From a virus (taxonomy: Duplodnaviria; Caudoviricetes), in the IMG/VR virus record IMGVR_UViG_3300042483_000388: 64,000 bases of DNA. The stretch is one strand, 5' to 3'. Within the stretch, counting starts at the first letter, position 1; every line of letters begins with the position of its first letter. The translations under genes were made by a program, and so were the position numbers. The notes beneath the pieces were generated by a model. That model searched no databases and was not told the DNA's origin. It saw only the letters and a list, made by a program, of their open reading frames with translations. Shown in pieces: positions 31,232 to 59,398 of the stretch.

Positions 31232-31305
31232 GGTCCTGTAGCTCAACTGAACAGAGCATTGCCCTTCTAAGGCAACGGTTGAAAGTTTGACTCTTTCCGG
31301 GATCA
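31232..31305 (+). tRNA. trnR: tRNA-Arg(TCT)
   Basis: Acceptor GGTCCTG/CGGGATC; D stem GCTC/GAGC; anticodon arm TTGCC-CTTCTAA-GGCAA; T arm GAAAG-TTTGACT-CTTTC; no encoded CCA. Confidence 0.88.
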
Positions 31306-31319
31306 CAAAAACAAAAACA

Positions 31320-31430
31320 ATGGATGAAATATTAGAATCGATGCATGAAGAGTTTATTAACTCCGAAGAGTATATCGTATTATTACGGAGATTAATAGAC
31401 GAAGAAGAAGAAAGATATTTAACAAAATAA
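31320..31430 (+). CDS. 36-aa acidic peptide
   Basis: Hand translation: MDEILESMHEEFINSEEYIVLLRRLIDEEEERYLTK*. Confidence 0.45.
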   Translation: MDEILESMHEEFINSEEYIVLLRRLIDEEEERYLTK

Positions 31431-31500
31431 GTTGTGTAGCTCAGTTGGTTAGAGCAATCCGATTTCGGATGTGTCGCAGGTTTGAGTCCCGCCACAACTT
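31430..31500 (+). ncRNA. tRNA-like RNA with collapsed (4-nt) anticodon loop
   Basis: Acceptor AGTTGTG/CACAACT; D arm GCTC-AGTTGGTTA-GAGC; ATCCG-ATTT-CGGAT; T arm GCAGG-TTTGAGT-CCCGC. Confidence 0.75.
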
Positions 31501-31569
31501 TTTATTAAAAAGGTATTGAATTTTTTCAATACCTTTTTTTTATCTTGAATTTTTTTGTATCTTTACAGT

Positions 31570-32073
31570 ATGAAAAACGAACTACCATACGAAGCTACAG
31601 GAAATGCAATCAAAGGATATACTGAATCTGCAATTGCTAAAGGTGAAACAAATGACTGTGTTGTAAGAGCATTTGCATCTTGTTTTGACTTACCATATGA
31701 CAAATCTCATAAGTTTGTCAAAGAGAAATTTGGTCGTAAAGATAGAAACGGAACTTATGGAACGGTTTTTAAGATGGGAGAGTTAGCGTCAACTAGATCC
31801 CAAATTAACTATAAAAAAGTTAAACCAATCGGCACACCTAAAACTATTGGTAGTCACAAAATTCACACTTTAGAATATGAGGTAATTGTTAAGGGTTGTA
31901 AGACTATGAGACAAATGACCGTAGGGACTTTCACAAAACAAAACCCTGTTGGGACATTCTTCATACTTGTTTCAAGACATGCATTTACAATCAAAGATGG
32001 TGTTGTGATCGGTAATTTGGAGGACTCAAAAAAACTTAAACGTATTATAAAATCTGCATTCGAGATAAAATAA
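31570..32073 (+). CDS. Conserved phage protein (NDCVVRA...H; possible Cys-protease-like fold)
   Basis: ETNDCVVRAFA...LVSRHAFTIKDG; probable start ATG 31570. Confidence 0.6.
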   Translation: MKNELPYEATGNAIKGYTESAIAKGETNDCVVRAFASCFDLPYDKSHKFVKEKFGRKDRNGTYGTVFKMGELASTRSQINYKKVKPIGTPKTIGSHKIHTLEYEVIVKGCKTMRQMTVGTFTKQNPVGTFFILVSRHAFTIKDGVVIGNLEDSKKLKRIIKSAFEIK

Positions 32074-32095
32074 ATTAAAAATATTTTACAAAGTG

Positions 32096-32127
32096 TTTGG
32101 CAAATCAAAAGTGATTATATATCTTTG
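32096..32127 (+). promoter_or_regulatory. Bacteroidota-type promoter
   Basis: TTTG 32096-32099, 20-nt spacer, TATCTTTG 32120-32127. Confidence 0.75.
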
Positions 32128-32131
32128 TAAT

Positions 32132-32332
32132 ATGGAAATAACAATTAACATACCCGATGGAGTTCTGAATAGATTGAAAGAACTTGAAATTACAGACGAA
32201 AATATTCAAAAAGAAGTTCTAATTGATTTTATAAAAGATTCTTTGGATACAGATTACTTAAACGGTATGTCCGATAAATTCAGAAAATGGACATTAAATA
32301 AAGAAAATATTAAAGTTTATTTGGCAGATTGA
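32132..32332 (+). CDS. Small hypothetical protein
   Basis: Start MEITINIP directly after the promoter. Confidence 0.6.
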   Translation: MEITINIPDGVLNRLKELEITDENIQKEVLIDFIKDSLDTDYLNGMSDKFRKWTLNKENIKVYLAD

Positions 32333-32425
32333 AATAAAATTCATAGATTTGTAAGAGAAACAACGGGGGTAGGAAGTGAGAGGTTGGTGTCCTACTCCCG
32401 TGAAGAAAGAAGAAGTTCATTGAAA
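32320..32425 (+). promoter_or_regulatory. Promoter plus hairpin and boxA-like leader of the tRNA operon
   Basis: TTTG 32320-32323, 20 nt, TAGATTTG 32344-32351; 11-bp hairpin 32364-32400; GTTCATTGAAA 32415-32425. Confidence 0.65.
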
Positions 32426-32433
32426 TTAAAATA

Positions 32434-32526
32434 TTGTGGTGGTAAGAAACGGGAAACTCGTAAAGTGCATTAACCTGTTGACATAAGATGGTGAAACGAG
32501 AGTGTGTGTCAGCTACTTAACTACAA
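32434..32526 (+). ncRNA. Unassigned structured RNA
   Basis: Closing stem TTGTGGT/ACTACAA; hairpin ACGGG-AAA-CTCGT; 9-bp stem GTTGACATA/TGTGTCAGC. Confidence 0.45.
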
Positions 32527-32532
32527 ATAAAT

Positions 32533-32606
32533 GGTGTGTGTAGCTCAATCGGAAGAGTGTCGGTTTGTGGAACCGAAGGTAGTGGGATCGTAACCCACCA
32601 TTCGCC
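32533..32606 (+). tRNA. trnH: tRNA-His(GTG)
   Basis: G-1:C73; anticodon arm TCGGT-TTGTGGA-ACCGA; T arm GTGGG-ATCGTAA-CCCAC. Confidence 0.85.
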
Positions 32607-32618
32607 CAAAAAGCACAC

Positions 32619-32691
32619 ACGTCTGTAGCTCCAACGGTAGAGCATTGGTTTCCAAAACCAAGTGTTGGTGGTTCGAATCCATCCAGGCGTG
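32619..32691 (+). tRNA. trnW: tRNA-Trp(CCA)
   Basis: Acceptor ACGTCTG/CAGGCGT; TTGGT-TTCCAAA-ACCAA; T loop TTCGAAT. Confidence 0.92.
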
Positions 32692-32766
32692 CTAATAAGG
32701 AAGTATATGAGAGTCCTGAATTGTACACAAAATATCCCTATTGACATCTCGGAAAGACGAGGACAT

Positions 32767-32840
32767 AGTTAATTATCTCAGTTGGTTAGAGCGATTCCCT
32801 GATACGGAATAGGTCATTGGTTCGAGTCCAGTATTAACTA
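32767..32840 (+). tRNA. trnI: tRNA-Ile(GAT)
   Basis: Acceptor AGTTAAT/ATTAACT; ATTCC-CTGATAC-GGAAT; T loop TTCGAGT. Confidence 0.9.
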
Positions 32841-32845
32841 CATAT

Positions 32846-32918
32846 CGCGGGATGTGGAAATTGGTCATCCGCTCGGTCTCATAAGCCGAGATTACAGGTT
32901 CGAGCCCTGTTCCCGCAA
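32846..32918 (+). tRNA. trnfM: Initiator-type tRNA-Met(CAT)
   Basis: C1xA72 mismatch (CGCGGGA/TCCCGCA); TCGGT-CTCATAA-GCCGA; only two of the three initiator G-C pairs in the anticodon stem. Confidence 0.85.
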
Positions 32919-32922
32919 CTAA

Positions 32923-33023
32923 GTGTTGTTCCTGTGAGAAGGGAATGGAATAGTCAGGTGGGTATATAAACTTTACAATGGGTTATATTCACATTTGCAC
33001 AACACAGAGGACTTCTCACCCTC
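32923..33023 (+). ncRNA. Unassigned structured RNA with predicted kissing loop
   Basis: P1 GTGTTGT/ACAACAC; P2 TCCT/GGGA with loop GTGAGAA; P3 GTGGGTATA/TATATTCAC; 3' hairpin GAGG/CCTC with loop ACTTCTCAC complementary to the P2 loop. Confidence 0.6.
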
Positions 33024-33027
33024 AAAT

Positions 33028-33097
33028 AGTCAGGGGGCGTGTAGGAGAACGCAACCGATCATAAGGGAGAGAATAGGTTCGAATCCTGTCCTGACTA
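33028..33097 (+). ncRNA. tRNA-like RNA (AGTCAGG shell) with unpaired anticodon arm containing CAT
   Basis: Acceptor AGTCAGG/CCTGACT; D stem GCGT/ACGC; T arm ATAGG-TTCGAAT-CCTGT; anticodon stem cannot form. Confidence 0.7.
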
Positions 33098-33112
33098 CTA
33101 ACAGAAAAGAAT

Positions 33113-33241
33113 ATGAAAAATAAAAGAATGTTAATTAAAGTGGACCTATTAGGTTGTAAAAACATGAAAGAAGCTTGTAGAGTTGTAGATTATCTCAGAG
33201 ATGGTAAAATTAAATTATCCGTTGAAAAAATAAAGAAATGA
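33113..33241 (+). CDS. 42-aa hypothetical peptide
   Basis: Hand translation: MKNKRMLIKVDLLGCKNMKEACRVVDYLRDGKIKLSVEKIKK*; ATGA overlap with the next gene. Confidence 0.5.
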   Translation: MKNKRMLIKVDLLGCKNMKEACRVVDYLRDGKIKLSVEKIKK

Positions 33242-33441
33242 TAAAGTGTGTTGACAGGGGGATATGGACTTGTATTAGTAATTCAGGTGTGTTAAAAAAA
33301 TCGTATGACAATTCTGATGCCGCAATTAGTGCTGCAAAATTAGTTAATAAATACGACCCAAAAGAAACAACAAAGTTAGTTGCGTACAAATGTACACATT
33401 GTCACAAATATCATTTATTAACGGTTAATAAAAAAAATTAA
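33238..33441 (+). CDS. Small putative zinc-binding protein
   Basis: AYKCTHCHKYHL (CxxC..H) plus an N-terminal Cys. Confidence 0.65.
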   Translation: MIKCVDRGIWTCISNSGVLKKSYDNSDAAISAAKLVNKYDPKETTKLVAYKCTHCHKYHLLTVNKKN

Positions 33442-33448
33442 ATAATAT

Positions 33449-33602
33449 AGTCAGGTGGTGGAATGTTAGACACATAGTGACACGCACGGCAACCTTGAAT
33501 AAGTGCACTTTGAAAAGGCAATGCGAATGATGAAGAACACTACCTCACTGTGCGTAGGTAAAATTCAAAGTGTTCATACAGGTTAGAATCCTGTCCTGAC
33601 TA
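33449..33602 (+). ncRNA. tRNA-shell RNA with ~100-nt structured insert replacing the anticodon arm
   Basis: Acceptor AGTCAGG/CCTGACT-A; D-like arm GTGGAATGTTAGACAC; T arm ACAGG-TTAGAAT-CCTGT; internal pairings listed under findings. Confidence 0.72.
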
Positions 33603-33674
33603 CAAAGGGGTAGAATATTAGTAAGGGCCTTTCCTGAAAGATGGCTAGCTAGGCCCGTGTCTACCCTTATTTTT

Positions 33675-33746
33675 GGTCCCATCGACTATCGGTTAGGTCG
33701 TCAGGTTTTCATCCTGGAAAGTCGGGTTCGATTCCCGGTGGGACTA
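33675..33746 (+). tRNA. trnE: tRNA-Glu(TTC)
   Basis: Acceptor GGTCCCA/TGGGACT; TCAGG-TTTTCAT-CCTGG; T loop TTCGATT. Confidence 0.92.
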
Positions 33747-33826
33747 CTATAGCTAACCAAGCTTTACTACGATACGGGTTCATACCTGTGGGTTAGGGGT
33801 GACGATCAGGAAAGACTGATAAAGTT

Positions 33827-33899
33827 GGTCCCGTGGTTGAATGGTTACAATTCCACCCTGTCACGGTGCGAGATACGGGTTCGAATCCCGTCGGGACCG
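33827..33899 (+). tRNA. trnD: tRNA-Asp(GTC)
   Basis: Acceptor GGTCCCG/CGGGACC; CACC-CTGTCAC-GGTG; T arm ACGGG-TTCGAAT-CCCGT. Confidence 0.92.
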
Positions 33900-33925
33900 C
33901 AAAACATTTTAAAAAAATAACTATT

Positions 33926-35205: not shown

Positions 35206-35817
35206 ATGGAAAATGTTGCAACAATCATAATAGCGTTTATAACAGGTGTTTTAGGTCCGGTTACATTATTATATATAAAACATGTATTAGCTAAGAGGCA
35301 AGTTAAACCCGACATGGTTAAAGAAACTCTAAGGGTGAGTGAATTAGTTACCGCAAAAATAGAACATATAAAAGATGAATTTGACGCAGATCGTGTTTGG
35401 ATAACACAATTCCATAATGGGGGTAATTTCTACCCAACAGGGAAGTCAATGGCTAAATTCTCAATAATGTATGAAACCGTCCATCAAGGTGTTCAATCGG
35501 TTCAAAGTAATTTCAATAACATACCAGTTAATTTATTTTCAAAATCAATCAATGAATTATTAAGTAACGACATTATTGAAATTCCTGATTTTAAGGACGA
35601 TTCAATTGCAACATTTGGTTTAAAATATATTGCCGAAGATACGGGATGTAAATCTGGTTATTTATTTGCAATTAAGACGATTGATAATAGATTTATTGGT
35701 TCTTTAGGTTTAGATTACACAAAACGTAAGAAGAAATTGGACATGGAATCAATTAATCACCTACAAGTCCATGCAACATCGTTAGGTGGAGTTCTTATGA
35801 GACACTTAGAACAATAA
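35206..35817 (+). CDS. N-terminal TM + GAF-like domain protein (T4 holin T-like architecture)
   Basis: TM IIIAFITGVLGPVTLLYI; ADRVWITQFHNG...SGYLFAIKTIDNRFIGSLGLDY is a GAF-type pattern. Confidence 0.6.
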   Translation: MENVATIIIAFITGVLGPVTLLYIKHVLAKRQVKPDMVKETLRVSELVTAKIEHIKDEFDADRVWITQFHNGGNFYPTGKSMAKFSIMYETVHQGVQSVQSNFNNIPVNLFSKSINELLSNDIIEIPDFKDDSIATFGLKYIAEDTGCKSGYLFAIKTIDNRFIGSLGLDYTKRKKKLDMESINHLQVHATSLGGVLMRHLEQ

Positions 35818-35853
35818 TTTTGTAAATCACAATTTAATTCATATCTTTACTGT

Positions 35854-36342
35854 ATGAATATATTTTTTTTAGATCTAGACACAAAAAAATGTGCGGAATA
35901 TCATTGTGATAAACACGTAGTAAAAATGATTTTGGAAACAGCACAACTATTGTGTGGTGTTCATCATGTAATCGGAAACGATACAATACCTATACCATAC
36001 AAGTTATCTCACAAAAATCATCCCTGTGCAATTTGGTCTCGCGAGTCCTTACCCAATTATCTTTATTTATGTGATTTTGGTTTGGAGTTATGTAAAGAAT
36101 ATACATATCGTTATGGTAGACGACATAAGTCCCAGGACGTAATAGAGTGGTGTTTAATAAACAAACCAAATATTTCCGACACAGAGTTCACAGAACCACC
36201 CAAGGCTATGCCAGATGAGTATAAAGTTGATAGTGTGGTAGAATCCTATAGAAATTACTATATTGGTGCAAAGAAAGACTTCGCAAAATGGAAAAATAGG
36301 GAAATACCTGAATGGTTTTTAAACGAGGGAGTATTTATATAA
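35854..36342 (+). CDS. Pyrimidine-dimer DNA glycosylase / endonuclease V-family protein
   Basis: MNIFFLD...HCDKHVVKMILETAQLL...HKNHPCAIW...PPKAMPDEYK...YRNYY. Confidence 0.8.
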   Translation: MNIFFLDLDTKKCAEYHCDKHVVKMILETAQLLCGVHHVIGNDTIPIPYKLSHKNHPCAIWSRESLPNYLYLCDFGLELCKEYTYRYGRRHKSQDVIEWCLINKPNISDTEFTEPPKAMPDEYKVDSVVESYRNYYIGAKKDFAKWKNREIPEWFLNEGVFI

Positions 36343-36357
36343 AAAATATAAATTAAC

Positions 36358-37176
36358 ATGGGTTTAAAAGTTTCAAGACAGGCATGTAATACTTCAGATC
36401 CTTGCTCCACTAATCCTGGTGTAAGCGGATGTATTAACGACTCAAATTTAAAATCGGTGGGTGTTGGTAGTCATAAACTACAAAAAGATGCTGCGGATGG
36501 TTTTATTAAGATGTACGCTGACATGCCTGCTGATATTAAAAGTTCGGTAAAATTATCGGATAGTTATAGACCATTAAAAGTTCAATGTAATATATTTGAT
36601 TTTGATCATTACGAAAGTACAGGTAAACGAAGAAAAAAAGGAACTAGTGGAACTCCTGTTGCAACACCAGGCGGATCAAACCATGGTTGGGGTAGAGCAA
36701 TTGATATATCCCCAAGTAATGTTCAAAAGTGGATTAAAGACAATGGAACAAAATATGGTTGGTGTTGGGGTGAAGTGAAATCAGAATCTTGGCATTTCAC
36801 ATTTTGCGGACCTGGACCAAATAGAGATAAAAACTGTGATAGCTTTTGTACAGGTAAAATGACTGTGAACACATCAACTAAAAGTTCATCTTCAGATGTA
36901 ACTGATAAAAAATCTGATACAACATCTTCAGATGTGACTGATAAAAAACCTGATACAACATCTTCAGATGTAACTGATAAAAAACCTGATACGGAAATAA
37001 AAACAAATGATAAAACAGATCCAGTTAACGATTTTGATTCCCTAATAAAAGATTTTGTTAGTTCAAAATTTAATATTCCCAAAAAAGATGAACCAAAAGA
37101 TAAAGAAGAAGTTGTTGCCGAAGGGTTAATACAAGAGATTTATAGAATTAAAGATATTATGAAAAAAATTCTTTAA
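36358..37176 (+). CDS. M15B (VanY-like) D-Ala-D-Ala peptidase / peptidoglycan hydrolase with repeat linker
   Basis: SDSYRPLKVQ, ATPGGSNHGWGRAIDIS (SxHxxGxAxD), ESWHF. Confidence 0.85.
   Translation: MGLKVSRQACNTSDPCSTNPGVSGCINDSNLKSVGVGSHKLQKDAADGFIKMYADMPADIKSSVKLSDSYRPLKVQCNIFDFDHYESTGKRRKKGTSGTPVATPGGSNHGWGRAIDISPSNVQKWIKDNGTKYGWCWGEVKSESWHFTFCGPGPNRDKNCDSFCTGKMTVNTSTKSSSSDVTDKKSDTTSSDVTDKKPDTTSSDVTDKKPDTEIKTNDKTDPVNDFDSLIKDFVSSKFNIPKKDEPKDKEEVVAEGLIQEIYRIKDIMKKIL
36889..36993 (+). repeat. 36-bp coding tandem repeat (SSDVTDKK[S/P]DT x3)
   Basis: TCTTCAGATGT.ACTGATAAAAAA units at 36889, 36925 and 36961. Confidence 0.9.
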
Positions 37177-37234: not shown

Positions 37235-37393
37235 ATGAACGAAGGAATTAAAGAAATAGAGATGTATTATTACATCGTAAATGGTAAACAACTATGGACA
37301 TCAAATGAGTTATTTGCTCACATTAGAGCAAACCATTATGGATCAGAAAATGTTTATATTGAAAAAATAAACACATCAGATTTGACAAATTAA
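37235..37393 (+). CDS. 52-aa hypothetical protein
   Basis: Hand translation: MNEGIKEIEMYYYIVNGKQLWTSNELFAHIRANHYGSENVYIEKINTSDLTN*. Confidence 0.55.
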   Translation: MNEGIKEIEMYYYIVNGKQLWTSNELFAHIRANHYGSENVYIEKINTSDLTN

Positions 37394-37551
37394 AATAAAG
37401 TCATTATCTTTGTAAGACAAATGAGGTAGATAACAGTTCAGACACAAGTCTCAAAAAAAAATAAAAAAGTTTAGAAAAAATTTGGAAAATTCAAAAAGTA
37501 TTCTTATCTTTGTAAAACAAATCGGAAACGTCCGATAACGTTCTTTGAAAA
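37381..37551 (+). promoter_or_regulatory. Tandem Bacteroidota promoters, hairpin and boxA-like element (rrn-like leader)
   Basis: TTTG/TATCTTTG at 37381/37405 and 37481/37505 (both 20-nt spacers); hairpin ATCGGA-AACG-TCCGAT 37521-37536; GTTCTTTGAAAA 37540-37551. Confidence 0.75.
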
Positions 37552-37554
37552 TTT

Positions 37555-38425
37555 AGATATTATCCGTTCAGGATTAGGTTAAGAACCTTCGGGTTTAAGA
37601 GTGAAACTGATAAAGATATTGGGCCGTGTATAGTCCATAAAATAAACTACGAAAGTAGGATAAAGTGAATCCACAAGTGTAACGGGTTTGCGTCTTAATA
37701 GTCTTCGGAATATTGAGGTCGAGTACACAGGCGAGATACCATAAGATCTTTAGTACCGAGGCCAACGGTGTAGGGAAAGTGATTTTATGACGAGGTGATG
37801 TGGGTCATCTTGTTGAGGAGGGAACTCCAATAGGAATAACTCGTAGGGACGTTGCAAGAATCAATATTTCCAATGTTGTTATTGCGGGTTCCAGTATCAA
37901 AGGATACTTAAAACCGAAAGGTATGTTAATGTACGGGTGGTGCCGTTATTAACCTTAACCGACTTCTACCAAGGGGTTAGTTTCGAAGTAGTCTTGAAAT
38001 ATTGAAATGGGGACATTTCACGGAGTTGTTTGGTATTTTGTTATTCAAAAGATAATGAAGCTTAAGACGGACCACAACTTTGATCAATCCACAACACAAA
38101 AACTTTTATAGAAAAGGTAAAACTTATAACTAAAAAGCAAAAGTGTTCGTCACGATATAACGGAAGTTACCCACCTATTCACTGGCTGTCAGTGGAACGT
38201 GATAACCGCAAGTTTGACCGTATTTTTATGAAAAATCTCTAGGTCGTCGAAGACCGAACCAGGACGCAATCTTGGGGAGACAGGAGTAGTAAGAGAGTAG
38301 TTGTATCGTCAAGGGGTGATTGGTCTAACCAATCGGTAATGAGTGTTACGGGACAAAATCCTGTGGATAAGAGTAGAACCAATAATGACTCGAAAGACAC
38401 TTACAAAAACTGTAATCTCAGGTTT
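37555..38425 (+). ncRNA. Large (~870 nt) highly structured non-coding RNA, GOLLD-like candidate
   Basis: No ORF >=60 aa; visibly G/C-richer than flanks; many tetraloop-capped hairpins (AACC-TTCG-GGTT 37584, CTAC-GAAA-GTAG 37647, AGTATC-AAAG-GATACT 37893, ACC-GAAA-GGT 37913, TGAAATG-GGGA-CATTTCA 38003, CCAGGA-CGCAA-TCTTGG 38259, GATTGGT-CTA-ACCAATC 38318). Family assignment rests on size and context only; boundaries approximate. Confidence 0.7.
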
Positions 38426-38461
38426 TTATTTTTAACATAAACTTTAAATTTAATTGAAAGC

Positions 38462-38635
38462 ATGCAAAAATTAATTCTCTTATCTATTGCTATTTTTACG
38501 ACAATCACTCTTATGACTGCTTGTGGTGAAAACGGAAATGGAACAACAACTGAAGTTTCAAGTCAAGATGTAACAAACGTATCAGATTCTACTTTAACAA
38601 CAAGTGAAGTTGTTTCTGACACAACAAAAAAATAA
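38462..38635 (+). CDS. 57-aa lipoprotein with Ser/Thr-rich tail
   Basis: Hand translation: MQKLILLSIAIFTTITLMTAC-GENGNGTTTEVSSQDVTNVSDSTLTTSEVVSDTTKK*. Confidence 0.65.
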   Translation: MQKLILLSIAIFTTITLMTACGENGNGTTTEVSSQDVTNVSDSTLTTSEVVSDTTKK

Positions 38636-38686
38636 TTTTATATTATTTTAAAACGGAACCTACCTTTTGGTGGGTTTTTTTGTGCT

Positions 38687-38731: not shown

Positions 38732-38767
38732 TAAAAAAACCCCACCTGTGGAGATGGGGTAATATAA

Positions 38768-39166
38768 GGTGGAGGTGCGGAGGCTCGAACTCCGGTCCAT
38801 AATATCCTGTCAGAGAAGGACTACACGTTTAGGTCAAGGTTTGTCATACCTTCCGAAATATCTGAGTTCTCACACCACTCAGCGACGGTGGTAGTTCTTA
38901 CGGGGAACCACGCCCGTTTTGTCCTCTTTTAGAGTGAAAACCAACTCATCAACGACTTCTGTTGCTAGGTTATCTGTCTGACCGACCCCCCGTTTCCGTA
39001 AACCTCTTAGGCTACAGTAACTTCAGAACCTCTTAGTAAACCAAGAGTTTCCATTTTCGATAAAACGTCGCCGATTGTTTTTGTGAATCAGTTTTTAAGG
39101 AGATTAATTCAGTCTCCACGTGCCCTTTGTCTTCAGCCAATACCTGTCAAATCCAAAAACACCCCC
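38768..39166 (-). ncRNA. ssrA: tmRNA (one-piece)
   Basis: 5' GGGGGTGTTTTTGGATTTGACAGG; 3' GGACCGGAGTTCGAGCCTCCGCACCTCCACC; acceptor with G3-U70 and A73; tag reading frame 39072-39007 GDVLSKMETLGLLRGSEVTVA*. Confidence 0.93.
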
Positions 39167-49408: not shown

Positions 49409-51184
49409 ATGGGACTATCTAAAGAACAGGTAATGATTGAATATGTTAAGTGTATGCAGGACACTCCATACGCTCTTCGCACATATTTACAAACTTACGA
49501 CAATACGGTATCACAATACGTCCCATTAGAATTATTTCCGGATCAGGTTTCTTTATTACAAGATTATGAGGATTATGAGGAAAACATCGCATTAAAATAT
49601 AGACAAGCTGGTGTATCAACGGTAACGGCAGCTTGGGTGTCAAAACGATTAGTTTTTGCTAAGAAAACTAAACCAGAAAAAATCTTAATTATTGCTAACA
49701 AACTTGATACATCCCAAGAGATGGCAAATAAGATTAGATCGTTTGTGGGTCAATGGCCTTCTTGGGTTGGTACTGGATTTGCGTCAGAAAAAAATGCACA
49801 AAAACACTACAAACTTGTAAATGGGTCTGAGGTTAAAGCGGTGGCAACATCAAAAGATGCCTTGAGAGGATTTACACCAACAATACTCATATTTGATGAG
49901 GCAGCATTTATTGAGGCGGATAACGATTTTTGGGCGGCTTGTATGGCGTCCCTATCCACTGGAGGTAAGGTAATCGTGGTTTCTACCCCTAACGGGTATG
50001 ACCCAATTTACTATGAAATATATGACCAAGCATTAAAAGGGATGAATCAATTTAAGATTACTGAAATGTTTTGGTATAGGGATCCACGATACACAAAAGA
50101 TCTTTATTTAGTTAAGACTGACGATATAGTTCATTATTTGCTCAATAGAGAAGAATATGACGAATCAAAAAATATTTCATTATCACATGTTGACCCATAT
50201 GAAAGAGATTACGATGAAATGTCTTACTTTTTTAAACAAGGGTATAAGCCATGTTCAAGTTGGTATGAAAAAATGGTTAAAAAACTTAAATATGATAAAA
50301 GAAAAATTAACCAAGAATTAAATTGTGCGTTTTTAGGGTCTGGTGACAACGTATTTGATAATAAACAACTTGAAGATATTAAAAATCTCTCATTGCAAGA
50401 ACCAATAACAAAGTTAATGGGTAATTCTATTTGGATATGGAAAGAACCTGTTGAGGGACATAAATATATTATGGGTATGGATGTTTCTCGTGGTGATAGC
50501 GAAGATTTTTCATCTATACAGATTATTGATTTTGATACAAGAGAACAAGTTTTTGAATATGTTGGAAAAATTCCTCCAGATAATTTAGCTGAAGTCGCCT
50601 ATAAATGGGCTGTTATGTATAAAGCATTTATTGTTGTGGATATTACTGGTGGTATGGGAATTACAACGGTAAGAAAACTACAAGAATTAGGATATAGGAG
50701 TTTATATGTTGAGGGTGTTGATTCTATGAATATTTGGGCGGTTAATAAAACTGCTATTGATAAAATACCTGGAATAAACTTTAACAACAAAAGAGTTCAG
50801 ATTATTGCCGCCTTTGAGGAGGGAATAAGACATAAATTCCAAATTAGAAGTGTTCGTTTATATAATGAGATGAATACGTTTATGTATATGAATGGTAGAC
50901 CAGACCACCAAAAAGGACAACATGATGACCTTATTATGGGAATATCTATGGCACTATATGTTGGTGAATCATCATTCTCTAAATTAGAAAAAGTAACCGA
51001 ACAAACAAAATCTATGATTAATTCATGGGCGGTTGTTAATAACGATACGGTGGCTAAGGAAGCTCACTTTAACCCAGTAATCCCAAATCAGAATATGTTG
51101 AATGAGAGGGCGGGTTTAAACACAGGAGCATCACGTAAGGACTATGAACAATATGGTTGGTTATTTGGTGGTATGAGAAGATAA
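49409..51184 (+). CDS. terL: Terminase large subunit (T4 gp17-like)
   Basis: LKYRQAGVST (Walker A region), ILIFDEAAFI (Walker B), VSTPNG, GMDVSRGDSEDFSSI and HDDLIMG nuclease motifs. Confidence 0.95.
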   Translation: MGLSKEQVMIEYVKCMQDTPYALRTYLQTYDNTVSQYVPLELFPDQVSLLQDYEDYEENIALKYRQAGVSTVTAAWVSKRLVFAKKTKPEKILIIANKLDTSQEMANKIRSFVGQWPSWVGTGFASEKNAQKHYKLVNGSEVKAVATSKDALRGFTPTILIFDEAAFIEADNDFWAACMASLSTGGKVIVVSTPNGYDPIYYEIYDQALKGMNQFKITEMFWYRDPRYTKDLYLVKTDDIVHYLLNREEYDESKNISLSHVDPYERDYDEMSYFFKQGYKPCSSWYEKMVKKLKYDKRKINQELNCAFLGSGDNVFDNKQLEDIKNLSLQEPITKLMGNSIWIWKEPVEGHKYIMGMDVSRGDSEDFSSIQIIDFDTREQVFEYVGKIPPDNLAEVAYKWAVMYKAFIVVDITGGMGITTVRKLQELGYRSLYVEGVDSMNIWAVNKTAIDKIPGINFNNKRVQIIAAFEEGIRHKFQIRSVRLYNEMNTFMYMNGRPDHQKGQHDDLIMGISMALYVGESSFSKLEKVTEQTKSMINSWAVVNNDTVAKEAHFNPVIPNQNMLNERAGLNTGASRKDYEQYGWLFGGMRR

Positions 51185-51413: not shown

Positions 51414-53195
51414 ATGGAAAATAACAATCAAAATTTTACAGTTTGGCAAAGGTTATCCAAAACTTTTGGACCTGATTCAACATTGGGGATGAGTCAACCT
51501 GACTATAAGTTAGATAAGAAAGAAATACTAAAAACAACAGATAAGGCCGAATACGAAAGGGCTAAATTACAGAATCAACAATCACTATACCTAAGTTCAA
51601 ATTGGGCTAAGGTCGAGAACAATCTTTATACTCAGGCGGTTTATTACGAACCAACAAGATTAGCAGCATTTTATGATTTTGAAAGTATGGAATACACTCC
51701 AGAAATCTCCGCAGCATTAGATATATATGCCGAAGAATCGACAACACCAAATCAAGATGGGTATGTTCTTCAGGTATATTCAGAATCAAAAAGAATTAAA
51801 AGTATTTTAGTTGATTTATTCGTAAATAATTTAGACGTAAACACCAACTTACCAATGTGGATTAGGAATATGTGTAAGTATGGTGATAATTTCGTTTATT
51901 TAAAATTAGATCATGAAAAGGGTGTCACTGGTTGTCTGCAACTACCTAACATTGAAATTGAAAGATTAGAGAAGGGTATGGAATCTAGATCATTTAATAT
52001 AACACCAGATGAAAATCAAAAAGCGTTAAGATTTACATGGAAAGTTAAAAATGTTGATTTTAACACTTGGGAGGTCGCTCACTTCAGATTATTGGGTGAT
52101 GATAGAAAACTTCCTTATGGGACATCTATGTTGGAGAAAGCAAGACGTATTTGGAAACAATTGGTTTTGGCCGAAGATGCGATGTTAATTTATAGAACAT
52201 CAAGAGCTCCTGAAAGACGAGTATTCAAAGTTTTTGTTGGTAATATGGATGATAAAGATGTTGAGGCCTACGTTCAAAGGGTTGCAAACAAATTTAAAAG
52301 GGATCAAGTGGTTGATAATAAAACGGGTAATGTAGATCTAAGATTCAACCAAATGGCGGTTGATCAAGATTATTTTATACCTGTACGTGACACCGCACAA
52401 GCAAGTCCCATCGACACCTTACCTGGAGCAACAAATTTATCTGAAATCGCCGATATTGAATATATTCAAAAGAAATTGGTAACGGCATTAAGAATACCTA
52501 AAGCGTATTTAGGTTTTGAGGAGGCTCTTGGAGATGGTAAAAACTTATCATTGTTGGATATTCGTTTCGCAAGAACAATTAACAGGATTCAAAAATCAGT
52601 AATTGCTGAATTAAATAAAATCGCAATTATTCACCTATTCTTAATGGGTTTTGAGGATGAATTACAAAACTTTACCTTAGGACTTACTAATCCATCTAAA
52701 CAAGCCGATTTGTTAATGATTGATGTTTGGAAAGAAAAAGTGACATTATATAAGGATATGGTTGCGGAAATTCCAAAATCAATTCAAGCTACTTCGGCAA
52801 CATGGGCTAAGAAACATATATTCGGATTCTCTGATGAGGAAATTAAGTTGGAGTTACAACAAGTTAGAATGGAAAGAGCGGTTGCTGCCGAACTTGATAA
52901 TACGGCAACAATTATTACTAAAACTGGATTATTTGATACTGTGGATAGGTTATATAAACCACCAGCATCCGGATCAACAGAATCTCCAGCACCTGAAGCT
53001 GGAGGGGCACCACCACCTGATGCGGGAGGTCCTCCACCTCCACCAGACGCAGGTCCACCAATTCCGGAATCAACTCTTAATAGTAAATTAAATATTCTTA
53101 CCGAAAATTCTGAGGACGAATTTTTGGATTTCTATAAAATGAATAACTCTTTAGGTTCAATTGAAAAAGAATTATCTAAATTATTACGAGATTAA
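51414..53195 (+). CDS. gp20: Portal protein (T4 gp20-like)
   Basis: PEISAALDIYAEE, KYGDNF, LAEDAMLIYRTSRAPERRVFKVFVGN, EDYF-type DQDYFIPVR, IDTLPG, LRIPK. Confidence 0.95.
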   Translation: MENNNQNFTVWQRLSKTFGPDSTLGMSQPDYKLDKKEILKTTDKAEYERAKLQNQQSLYLSSNWAKVENNLYTQAVYYEPTRLAAFYDFESMEYTPEISAALDIYAEESTTPNQDGYVLQVYSESKRIKSILVDLFVNNLDVNTNLPMWIRNMCKYGDNFVYLKLDHEKGVTGCLQLPNIEIERLEKGMESRSFNITPDENQKALRFTWKVKNVDFNTWEVAHFRLLGDDRKLPYGTSMLEKARRIWKQLVLAEDAMLIYRTSRAPERRVFKVFVGNMDDKDVEAYVQRVANKFKRDQVVDNKTGNVDLRFNQMAVDQDYFIPVRDTAQASPIDTLPGATNLSEIADIEYIQKKLVTALRIPKAYLGFEEALGDGKNLSLLDIRFARTINRIQKSVIAELNKIAIIHLFLMGFEDELQNFTLGLTNPSKQADLLMIDVWKEKVTLYKDMVAEIPKSIQATSATWAKKHIFGFSDEEIKLELQQVRMERAVAAELDNTATIITKTGLFDTVDRLYKPPASGSTESPAPEAGGAPPPDAGGPPPPPDAGPPIPESTLNSKLNILTENSEDEFLDFYKMNNSLGSIEKELSKLLRD

Positions 53196-57511: not shown

Positions 57512-59398
57512 ATGGGAGCATTATTAGAATCAGGTCTTGTTGGTAACATAGGGTTAAAACACCTTAAAGTTATCAAAGAAGACACTATTAACAAATGGAA
57601 CAAATTAGGGTTCCTTGATGGACTTAAAGGTCATCTAAAAGAAAATATGGCTCAATTATATGAGAATCAAGCGTCACATTTGATTAACGAAGCAACTGGA
57701 GAAGGTTCTAACGGAGCATTTGAAACTGTTGTTTTCCCAATCGTAAGACGTGTATTCTCTAAATTGTTAGCTAACGACATCGTATCAGTACAAGCAATGA
57801 ACTTACCTATCGGTAAATTGTTCTACTTCGTACCTAAAATCCAAGGATATCAAAATGAATATCAAGGACCAGATGCGACAGGTGGTATTCATTATCCTCC
57901 AGTTGGAGCACCAAATGGACCTGCTAATGGAGCTGGATATGAGCCAACAGGACCATACGCTTACAAGAAAAACCTTTATGATTTATTCTACGAAGGAAAT
58001 GAGGCAGGAATGGATCCACAAGGATTATTTGACTACTCTAAAGGTAAGTGGACCGCAGTTACTGCAACTACAACAATCCAAGCATGGGCTGGTTCAGCAC
58101 TTGTTAACGCAACTATCAACGGAGGTACTCCTGCAGGTGGAACACAAATTCCAGCAGGTAACATAAGAAAAGTTCTTATGAAAATGTGTGGTTTCGCAAA
58201 TTCAGGAGCTGGTAAATTAATCGGACCTGATGGTAACGAAATGGATAGTGAGGCATTTTTGTCTGACTTGAGAATATTCGCATCAACAGGATTATCCGCA
58301 TCTACTACACCTTGTGACGTTCTTAAAAACAGTGCAGGACAATACATTCCTTTATTATTTAGATGTGTTACTCAAATATACGGTAAAGGTCTTGTTAAAT
58401 ATGGTGGTCAACAATCAACAACATTTGCAAACACTAGTACTCAACCTAACGACGCAGGTAATGGTGGTTCTTACTACGATATCTGTGACTCAGATGGTTG
58501 TATCTATTTAGAAGTAGATTTATCTTGTCCAGTATGTGCTGATTGTGACTCAACATCTTTAGATGGTTACACAGGTACTACAATATACTCAGGTGGATCT
58601 GGAACTTCATTTACTGCATTCTTTAGACGATATGCTAACTTAGAATTTGAAGACGAAATTGGTGAGGTTTCTTTTGATTTAGAATCAGTAACTGTTTCTG
58701 TAACTGAAAGAAAACTAAGAGCACAATGGTCTCCTGAATTAGCTCAAGACGTTGCGGCATTCCACAACATCGACGCTGAAGCTGAATTAACAGCATTGTT
58801 ATCTGAACAAGTAGCAGCTGAAATCGACCGTGAGATCCTTCGTGACTTACGTAAAGGTGCGGCATGGAACTTACGTTGGGATTACAACGGATGGAGAAGA
58901 ATTTCTCAAACAACATCTTACACTCAGAAAGACTGGAACCAAACATTAATTACAGCAATCAATCAGTTGTCTGCACAAATTCACAAATCAACTTTGAGAG
59001 GTGGTGCTAACTGGATCGTTGTTTCTTCTGAGGTTTCTGCTATCTTTGACGATTTAGAATACTTCCACGTATCTAACGCGGCTCCTGAGCAAGATCAGTA
59101 TAACATGGGTATTGAAAGAGTTGGTACTCTTGCAGGACGTTACCAAGTTTATCGTGATCCTTACTTCCCAGCAAACCAAGTTTTGATTGGACACAAAGGA
59201 ACATCATTGTTAGACACAGGTTACATCTACGCACCGTATGTACCATTACAATTAACACCTACAATGTACAATCCGTTCAACTTTACTCCGATCAAAGGAA
59301 TAATGACGAGATACGCGAAAAAAATGGTAAATAATCGCTTTTACGGGAGAATTACCGTAGATGGTGTTCGTACATTCGATTTAAGAGAATTGAGATAA
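57512..59398 (+). CDS. gp23: Major capsid protein (T4 gp23-like) with large insertion
   Basis: VQAMNLPIGKLFY, RKLRAQWSPELAQD...IDAEAEL...EIDREI, GYIYAPYVPL, MTRYAK. Confidence 0.96.
   Translation: MGALLESGLVGNIGLKHLKVIKEDTINKWNKLGFLDGLKGHLKENMAQLYENQASHLINEATGEGSNGAFETVVFPIVRRVFSKLLANDIVSVQAMNLPIGKLFYFVPKIQGYQNEYQGPDATGGIHYPPVGAPNGPANGAGYEPTGPYAYKKNLYDLFYEGNEAGMDPQGLFDYSKGKWTAVTATTTIQAWAGSALVNATINGGTPAGGTQIPAGNIRKVLMKMCGFANSGAGKLIGPDGNEMDSEAFLSDLRIFASTGLSASTTPCDVLKNSAGQYIPLLFRCVTQIYGKGLVKYGGQQSTTFANTSTQPNDAGNGGSYYDICDSDGCIYLEVDLSCPVCADCDSTSLDGYTGTTIYSGGSGTSFTAFFRRYANLEFEDEIGEVSFDLESVTVSVTERKLRAQWSPELAQDVAAFHNIDAEAELTALLSEQVAAEIDREILRDLRKGAAWNLRWDYNGWRRISQTTSYTQKDWNQTLITAINQLSAQIHKSTLRGGANWIVVSSEVSAIFDDLEYFHVSNAAPEQDQYNMGIERVGTLAGRYQVYRDPYFPANQVLIGHKGTSLLDTGYIYAPYVPLQLTPTMYNPFNFTPIKGIMTRYAKKMVNNRFYGRITVDGVRTFDLRELR

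Follow-up and report, generated by a model that had tools for sequence, protein, structure and literature searches.

Positions 37518–38435 (plus strand) of the IMG/VR virus record IMGVR_UViG_3300042483_000388, of which the whole 64,000-nucleotide stretch analysed here is referred to as the window, constitute, with a probability of roughly 0.9, a full-length GOLLD gene of approximately 0.9 kb, carried by a freshwater phage whose host is probably a member of the Flavobacteriia or of other Bacteroidota. The RNA adds a further member to a known family and is located in the original habitat and genomic niche of that family. Given the conserved boxA-like motif in its leader, the gene looks to be transcribed like rRNA, as a Nus-modified unit. 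GOLLDs are among the largest non-coding RNAs of bacteria and phages, form RNA-only hollow cages that exceed the ribosome in size and have been reported to rise during phage lysis; to our knowledge, no function has been assigned to them.

The initial annotation, made by eye from the letters, had proposed an RNA of GOLLD type or a related new large RNA and named the Rfam models against which this should be checked. The whole window was therefore scanned against Rfam 15 at gathering thresholds, and the GOLLD reading was supported by a full-length match with a score nearly twice the gathering cut-off, whereas no intron, RNase P, OLE, ROOL or rRNA match was obtained in the stretch. The match spans model positions 1 to 416 of 416, i.e., is not truncated, and contains only few non-standard pairs. 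The Rfam model covers the conserved 3′ domain only, while the definition of GOLLD joins this conserved 3′ region to a less conserved 5′ one (PMC12286853). In the window, the two domains form a GOLLD body of 865 nt (37560–38424):

37560–38020 (+): GOLLD 5′ domain, with variable outer hairpins at 37560–37618 and a conserved core from 37619
38021–38424 (+): GOLLD 3′ domain, Rfam RF02032, 287 bits against a cut-off of 150, E-value 5.8e-81

The traits by which the stretch had originally drawn attention, namely, the absence of ORFs, the enrichment in G and C, the density of capped hairpins and a long-range pairing near the 3′ end, could all be recovered. The longest ORF on either strand of 37520–38430 is at most 56 aa, the G+C content is 0.40–0.44 within the stretch compared with 0.24–0.33 in the flanks, and the hairpins are legible in the sequence, with UUCG loops at approximately 37589 and 37704 and GAAA loops at 37651 and 37917. 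The pairing of AGTGTT (38342–38347) with GACACT (38396–38401) lines up with one of the consensus helices of the Rfam GOLLD model, which consists of six pairs (GAGUGU/ACACUU). The predicted fold of the plus strand has an energy of −239.5 kcal/mol, compared with −223.0 ± 6.8 kcal/mol for dinucleotide shuffles (z = −2.45; 0 of 20 shuffles were as stable), whereas the minus strand folds no better than its own shuffles (z = −0.17). The folding stability of the GOLLD stretch is thus strand-specific and, on the plus strand, beyond chance.

The 5′ domain, approximately 460 nt in length, lies upstream of the part matched by Rfam. A 21-nt motif within it (CGAAAGNNGGATAAAGTGAAT, at 37650 in the window) was found in at least 120 IMG/VR contigs, and the 3′ motif likewise in at least 120. 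The spacing between the two motifs is 713 nt in the window and ranges from 677 to 754 nt in the 32 loci in which both motifs are exact (the window and 31 retrieved loci, two of which come from LR745206.1). LR745206.1, which is 634,780 bp long and comes from an uncultured phage, has a GOLLD (287.3 bits) at the matching place and the same tandem promoters; the 5′ part of the window RNA can be aligned throughout with the sequence preceding the Rfam hit of this GOLLD, which carries a 41-nt insertion near the end of its 5′ domain. When 59 copies of the 5′ half with mutual identities below 92% were aligned, RNAalifold predicted 108 pairs, 78 of which show at least one compensatory double change. By our own count, standard pairs fill 97.0% of the pair cells of this alignment, compared with 37–40% in controls in which the 3′ partner was slid by 1–3 columns and 80.6 ± 0.3% upon within-column shuffling. 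Covariation among homologues, proposed at the outset as a check on the RNA, is abundant in both GOLLD halves. The homology, fixed spacing and covariation of the 5′ half indicate that it is a real conserved structured domain and part of the same RNA as the 3′ half. In three loci (L112, L209 and L221), two extra small hairpins with UUCG-type loops, seen at columns 250–285 of the 5′-half alignment, are inserted right after the conserved GGGCCGTGTATGGTCC segment, marking where the cage cap tolerates additions.

Two other explanations of the stretch can be weighed against this evidence. It could harbour two RNAs, with only the 3′ half being GOLLD and the 5′ 460 nt representing an independent structured neighbour, a view favoured by the restriction of the Rfam model to the 3′ half and by the separate domains that the two halves form in the solved cage (PMC12286853). 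We consider this highly improbable, because the spacing of the 5′ and 3′ motifs is fixed across the 32 loci, no promoter or terminator was called between the halves, and the definition of GOLLD includes the 5′ region, with the 5′ domains forming the cage caps (PMC12286853). Still less credible, to the point of being negligible, is that the stretch is an inactive relic of GOLLD, or that a group I or II intron, a fragment of rRNA or a coding stretch has been mistaken for an RNA gene. Nothing in favour of any of these was found, and the data speak against them: the RF02032 match is full-length with nearly standard pairing, GOLLD is the sole Rfam family matched at 37381–38425, no ORF is longer than 56 aa, and the sequence is conserved in hundreds of contigs and present in RNA libraries.

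Two candidate 3′ ends were located for the GOLLD gene:

38425–38435 (+): T-rich run that directly follows the last GOLLD hairpin, possible 3′ end
38655–38685 (+): first canonical intrinsic terminator downstream, a 10-bp stem followed by a T-run, alternative 3′ end

Nearly all homologues display GTAATCTCAG and a stem followed by a T-run, and the terminator scan called no canonical terminator directly after GOLLD, the T-run at 38425–38435 included. A 57-aa ORF (38462–38635, plus strand) separates GOLLD from the first canonical terminator. It has a lipoprotein-like start, i.e., a hydrophobic stretch followed by a Cys, is also found in the nearest relative (L212) and may be co-transcribed with GOLLD.

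The subunit-joining elements of the solved GOLLD cage are present, and covary, in the family of the window RNA. They map to the 3′ domain as follows:

38083–38140 (+): A-rich variable linker J13/15, in agreement with the linker of the Rfam alignment and ending in AAGCAAAAG
38207–38211 (+): loop L20 (CGCAA), the GC of which is the partner of the linker GC (contact B7)
38242–38255 (+): hairpin P21a with loop GUCGAA (self-complementary UCGA, ‘CG’ class)
38259–38275 (+): hairpin P21b with loop CGCAA (self-complementary GC), from the Rfam match and homologue comparison

The linker, which differs in length among homologues and contains no tRNA in the window, pairs through its GC at 38137–38138 with the GC at 38208–38209 in L20. 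Among 110 distinct 3′ domains, the linker and L20 dinucleotides covary in three states, GC/GC, GG/CC and CG/CG. Similarly, L21a of the homologues is either CGCAA/GGCA (GC) or GUCGAA (CG), the window RNA being of the latter kind. The cage of the env-38 GOLLD (833 nt, PDB 9MEE; Kretsch et al. 2025, PMC12286853) was determined by cryo-EM as a D7 14-mer, the contacts of which include a kissing interaction between L20 and J13/15 (B7) and the symmetric contacts B8 (L21a) and B9 (L21b), with the alternation of GC and CG in L21a among homologues serving as evidence for B8 (PMC12286853). The env-38 14-mer possesses P21b, which the 12-mer GOLLD of Streptococcus agalactiae (Sag) lacks (PMC12990946).

The window RNA resembles env-38 in its full 3′-domain match, two-domain layout of approximately 0.87 kb and A-rich internal linker, in the presence of both P21a and P21b, the L20–J13/15 contact and the self-complementary L21a and L21b loops, as well as in its phage origin, aquatic habitat and nearby tRNA genes. 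It differs from env-38 in having an L21a of the minority ‘CG’ class (UCGA) instead of the ‘GC’ class and a linker devoid of a tRNA. The Sag GOLLD (700 nt, PDB 9L0R; reviewed in PMC12990946) is a 12-mer of the same family with the same 3′ core which lacks P9, P11a-c and P21b (PMC12990946), whereas P21b does occur in the window RNA, the 5′ domain of which is longer. By analogy to these two solved homologues, from which the cage reading extrapolates and which were compared by published description rather than by sequence, the window RNA would form an env-38-like cage, likely a 14-mer, because P21a and P21b are both present. The RNA would self-assemble into this closed dihedral cage without protein, and the A-rich linker would point into the cage interior. 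Another family, ROOL (RF03087), is similar to GOLLD in being a large ornate RNA of phages and prophages that is linked to tRNA islands, forms RNA-only cages and has no known function, but it has no Rfam match in the window, and its sequence and fold are unrelated.

The carrier of the gene is a phage, as the initial annotation had held, since the window encodes the terminase, portal and major head protein:

49409–51184: large terminase
51414–53195: portal
57512–59398: major head protein

A Lon-like protease is also encoded in the window, and a VanY-type peptidase and a pyrimidine-dimer glycosylase are encoded just upstream of GOLLD. The terminase has 415 relatives in IMG/VR, several on contigs that also carry GOLLD. 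As to the jumbo phage supposed in the initial annotation, GOLLD-bearing contigs of 272,576 and 187,384 bp encode terminases that are 83–84% identical. Support for a Bacteroidota host is indirect only and comes from the Bacteroidota-type promoters in the window, a tRNA-Glu that is 96% identical to that of a Flavobacterium phage, and a 7.4-kb contig binned with a Flavobacterium metagenome-assembled genome (MAG), L306, which carries both GOLLD (289 bits) and tmRNA. When cultured and deposited phages were searched for near-identical counterparts of 24 kb of the window, only the tRNA-Glu match was returned. The scan of genome contigs with the 5′ motif produced 4 hits, with approximately 4 being expected by chance from its 19 specified bases; Rfam recognized a GOLLD in L306 alone, whereas the other three contigs, L307–L309, were rejected and represent chance matches of the motif.

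Upstream of the GOLLD body, the following leader elements were recognized:

37381–37412 (+): distal promoter P1 of the Bacteroidota type (TTTG, 20 nt, TATCTTTG), identified by pattern scan
37481–37512 (+): proximal promoter P2 of the Bacteroidota type, exactly 100 bp after P1
37521–37536 (+): small leader hairpin of 6 bp in a boxB-like position at the predicted 5′ end of the transcript
37540–37551 (+): boxA-like element GTTCTTTGAAAA, between the leader hairpin and GOLLD

Two strong promoters had been noted in front of the RNA, and both match the Bacteroidota-type pattern, TTTG-N(17–21)-TAnnTTTG, with P1 also scoring 10 of 12 in a sigma-70 scan. The pattern occurs 11 times in the window, compared with 4.4 ± 2.1 times in shuffles, and further matches precede the tRNA genes. 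A promoter at the position of P2 is conserved across the GOLLD homologues, and transcription probably starts at approximately 37518 ± 3. Between the promoters (37420–37480, plus strand), there is a small hairpin, CAGAC-ACAA-GUCUC, followed by an A-run; this segment is 78% conserved with LR745206.1, with one compensatory change (GAC/GUC to GAU/AUC), and in front of the hairpin stands AGTTCAGACA, with a loose resemblance to the Flavobacterium leader box.

The positions of P2, the leader hairpin and GTTCTTTGAAAA are conserved among homologues and the sequence farther upstream is not; at the place of the leader hairpin, the homologues have a hairpin of varying sequence. In the motif itself, by comparison, the sequence is retained: of 92 unique loci, 86 have GTTCTTT[GA]A at 48–160 nt before the 5′ motif and 6 lack it there, against a background in the same loci of 0.098 per kb per strand; of another 73 loci, which have no exact 5′ motif, 58 have it in the corresponding position. 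Even where tRNAs intervene between the promoter and GOLLD, as in LR745206.1 and in L132, the hairpin and motif still stand directly before GOLLD. The LR745206.1 segment 416970–423087 (L001) has two such tRNA genes. The exact 12-mer GTTCTTTGAAAA is identical to the start of a standard Mycoplasma detection primer, which is directed at the 16S–23S spacer.

The closest known counterpart of this leader is that of the rRNA operons. The rrn operons of Bacillus subtilis begin with a small hairpin followed immediately by boxA, to which NusB binds; boxA is AUGAUCUUUGAAA in B. subtilis rrn and UGCUCUUUAACA in Escherichia coli, and the boxA:NusB:S10:NusG network is conserved in Bacteroidota, as reported in 2026 (PMC13753749). 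As the two MAGs reached by the scan of genome contigs contained no 16S gene, other genomes of the genus of the Flavobacterium MAG were used to read rRNA operons (L310, L313, L317, L311 and L312). Two of the 5 leaders have tandem TAnnTTTG promoters, up to three of them and approximately 105 bp apart. Whereas a first, strict boxA pattern found almost nothing in the 16S leaders, reading of the leaders and spacers yielded a host form, GTTCATTGA; after the tandem promoters, 2 of the 5 leaders carry GTTCATTGA, GTTCACTGA, GTTCCTTGA or GTTCTTTAACA, and all 5 of the 16S–23S spacers carry GTTCATTGACA. The GOLLD leader thus shares with rrn leaders the tandem host-type promoters approximately 100 bp apart, the small 5′ hairpin and the boxA-like sequence that follows it. 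Compared with B. subtilis GAUCUUUGAAA, the window GTTCTTTGAAA agrees at 10 of 11 positions; compared with GTTCATTGA, the spacer box of Flavobacterium, it agrees at 8 of the 9 shared positions, with T in place of A at one. Unlike in rrn units, the leader is followed by a phage RNA instead of rRNA, and no leader–trailer processing helix was identified.

Two further observations concern related boxes. GTTCATTGACATATTGAGATA is invariant in the 16S–23S spacers of all five Flavobacterium operons, and the related GTTC[AGC]TAGACATATTGAATTGACAG occurs in the proximal leader; both are probably boxA regions of the genus. In the window, the leader of the phage tRNA operon (32320–32425, plus strand) has a GOLLD-like design, with a Bacteroidota-type promoter at 32320–32351, an 11-bp hairpin and, at 32415, GTTCATTGAAA, which shares an exact 9-nt match with the Flavobacterium rRNA spacer box.

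We tentatively propose, at odds somewhat short of even, that the GOLLD units of a large freshwater phage lineage deliberately copy host rRNA operons in their promoters, hairpin and boxA, such that GOLLD would be transcribed by the Nus complex, which would shield it from Rho and serve as a folding chaperone. Host RNA polymerase would start at the two tandem host-type promoters; the nascent leader, with its 5′ hairpin and GTTCTTTGAAAA, would recruit NusB/S10 and other Nus factors, as happens at rRNA operons; and the modified transcription would render the long untranslated transcript Rho-resistant and help it to fold while being made. In a search of the literature, chiefly of journals open without subscription, no report was encountered that connects GOLLD with boxA or antitermination.

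Alternatively, transcription may be ordinary and GTTCTTTGAA may not be a boxA for Nus factors, being instead a strand of an outer GOLLD helix, a site at which an RNase processes the transcript or one to which a phage protein binds. The motif is indeed short and A/T-rich in an A/T-rich genome, its assignment as boxA derives from likeness and conservation of sequence, and the box in the proximal 16S leader of Flavobacterium, GTTCATAGACA, fits it less well. The minimum-free-energy fold, moreover, pairs the motif stretch with distant sequence, but this long-range pairing clashes with Rfam helix P21, and the motif is conserved as a sequence, rather than as a covarying helix, at a distance to the core that varies from 48 to 160 nt. 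Its location after a promoter and small hairpin, as in rrn leaders, and its persistence beside GOLLD despite intervening tRNAs, reminiscent of the second boxA in rRNA spacers, also speak against this alternative, which we regard as rather unlikely.

The initial annotation had expected the RNA to be expressed at a high level, and public sequencing runs bear on this. Fourteen DNA runs from lakes or freshwater have the GOLLD stretch (37515–38430) in their contigs, and it is also present in those of six lake metatranscriptome runs from five studies, at 0.71–0.76 of the sampled words. The neighbouring protein genes (35206–37176, 2 kb) were recovered in 19 DNA runs at 0.90 of the words or more, whereas the only RNA run among the matches listed contains 0.05 of their words. 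The occurrence of RNA runs with GOLLD but not the neighbouring genes speaks against DNA carry-over and favours an RNA that is far commoner than its neighbours, which suggests high-level expression of GOLLD, although the runs that hold approximately three-quarters of the words may stem from close relatives of the phage.

Beside GOLLD, the Rfam matches in the window comprise eight tRNAs and one tmRNA, and the gene lies between the following stable RNA genes:

31232–33900: seven tRNA genes upstream of GOLLD, identified by ARAGORN
38767–39166 (−): tmRNA, convergent with GOLLD, Rfam score of 97 bits against a cut-off of 47

Because ARAGORN misses the window tmRNA and undercounts tmRNAs in related loci, the latter were searched by nhmmer with the window tmRNA as the query. 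A tmRNA-like match was detected within 3 kb downstream of GOLLD in 46 of the 98 loci with enough downstream sequence and upstream in none, indicating that the pairing of GOLLD and tmRNA recurs in the phage lineage. Since GOLLD sits in a stable-RNA island, with seven tRNAs upstream and a tmRNA downstream, our best guess is that the cage would hold or scaffold translation-related cargo during lytic growth.

One more copy of GOLLD is little gain by itself; the additions made here are the conserved rRNA-style leader, the frequent tmRNA neighbour and the evidence from environmental RNA. The GOLLD of the window comes from a freshwater phage lineage that is abundant and provides hundreds of alignable homologues, and it is detectable in environmental RNA. 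The tmRNA neighbour is another pointer to a translation-related role. The rRNA-style leader, for its part, suggests how GOLLD is made and offers an experimental handle in tractable Flavobacterium systems. If the proposed Nus-dependent transcription is true, it would be the first concrete link of GOLLD to a defined host machinery, and an abundant boxA-bearing transcript could pull NusB/S10 away from the synthesis of host rRNA.
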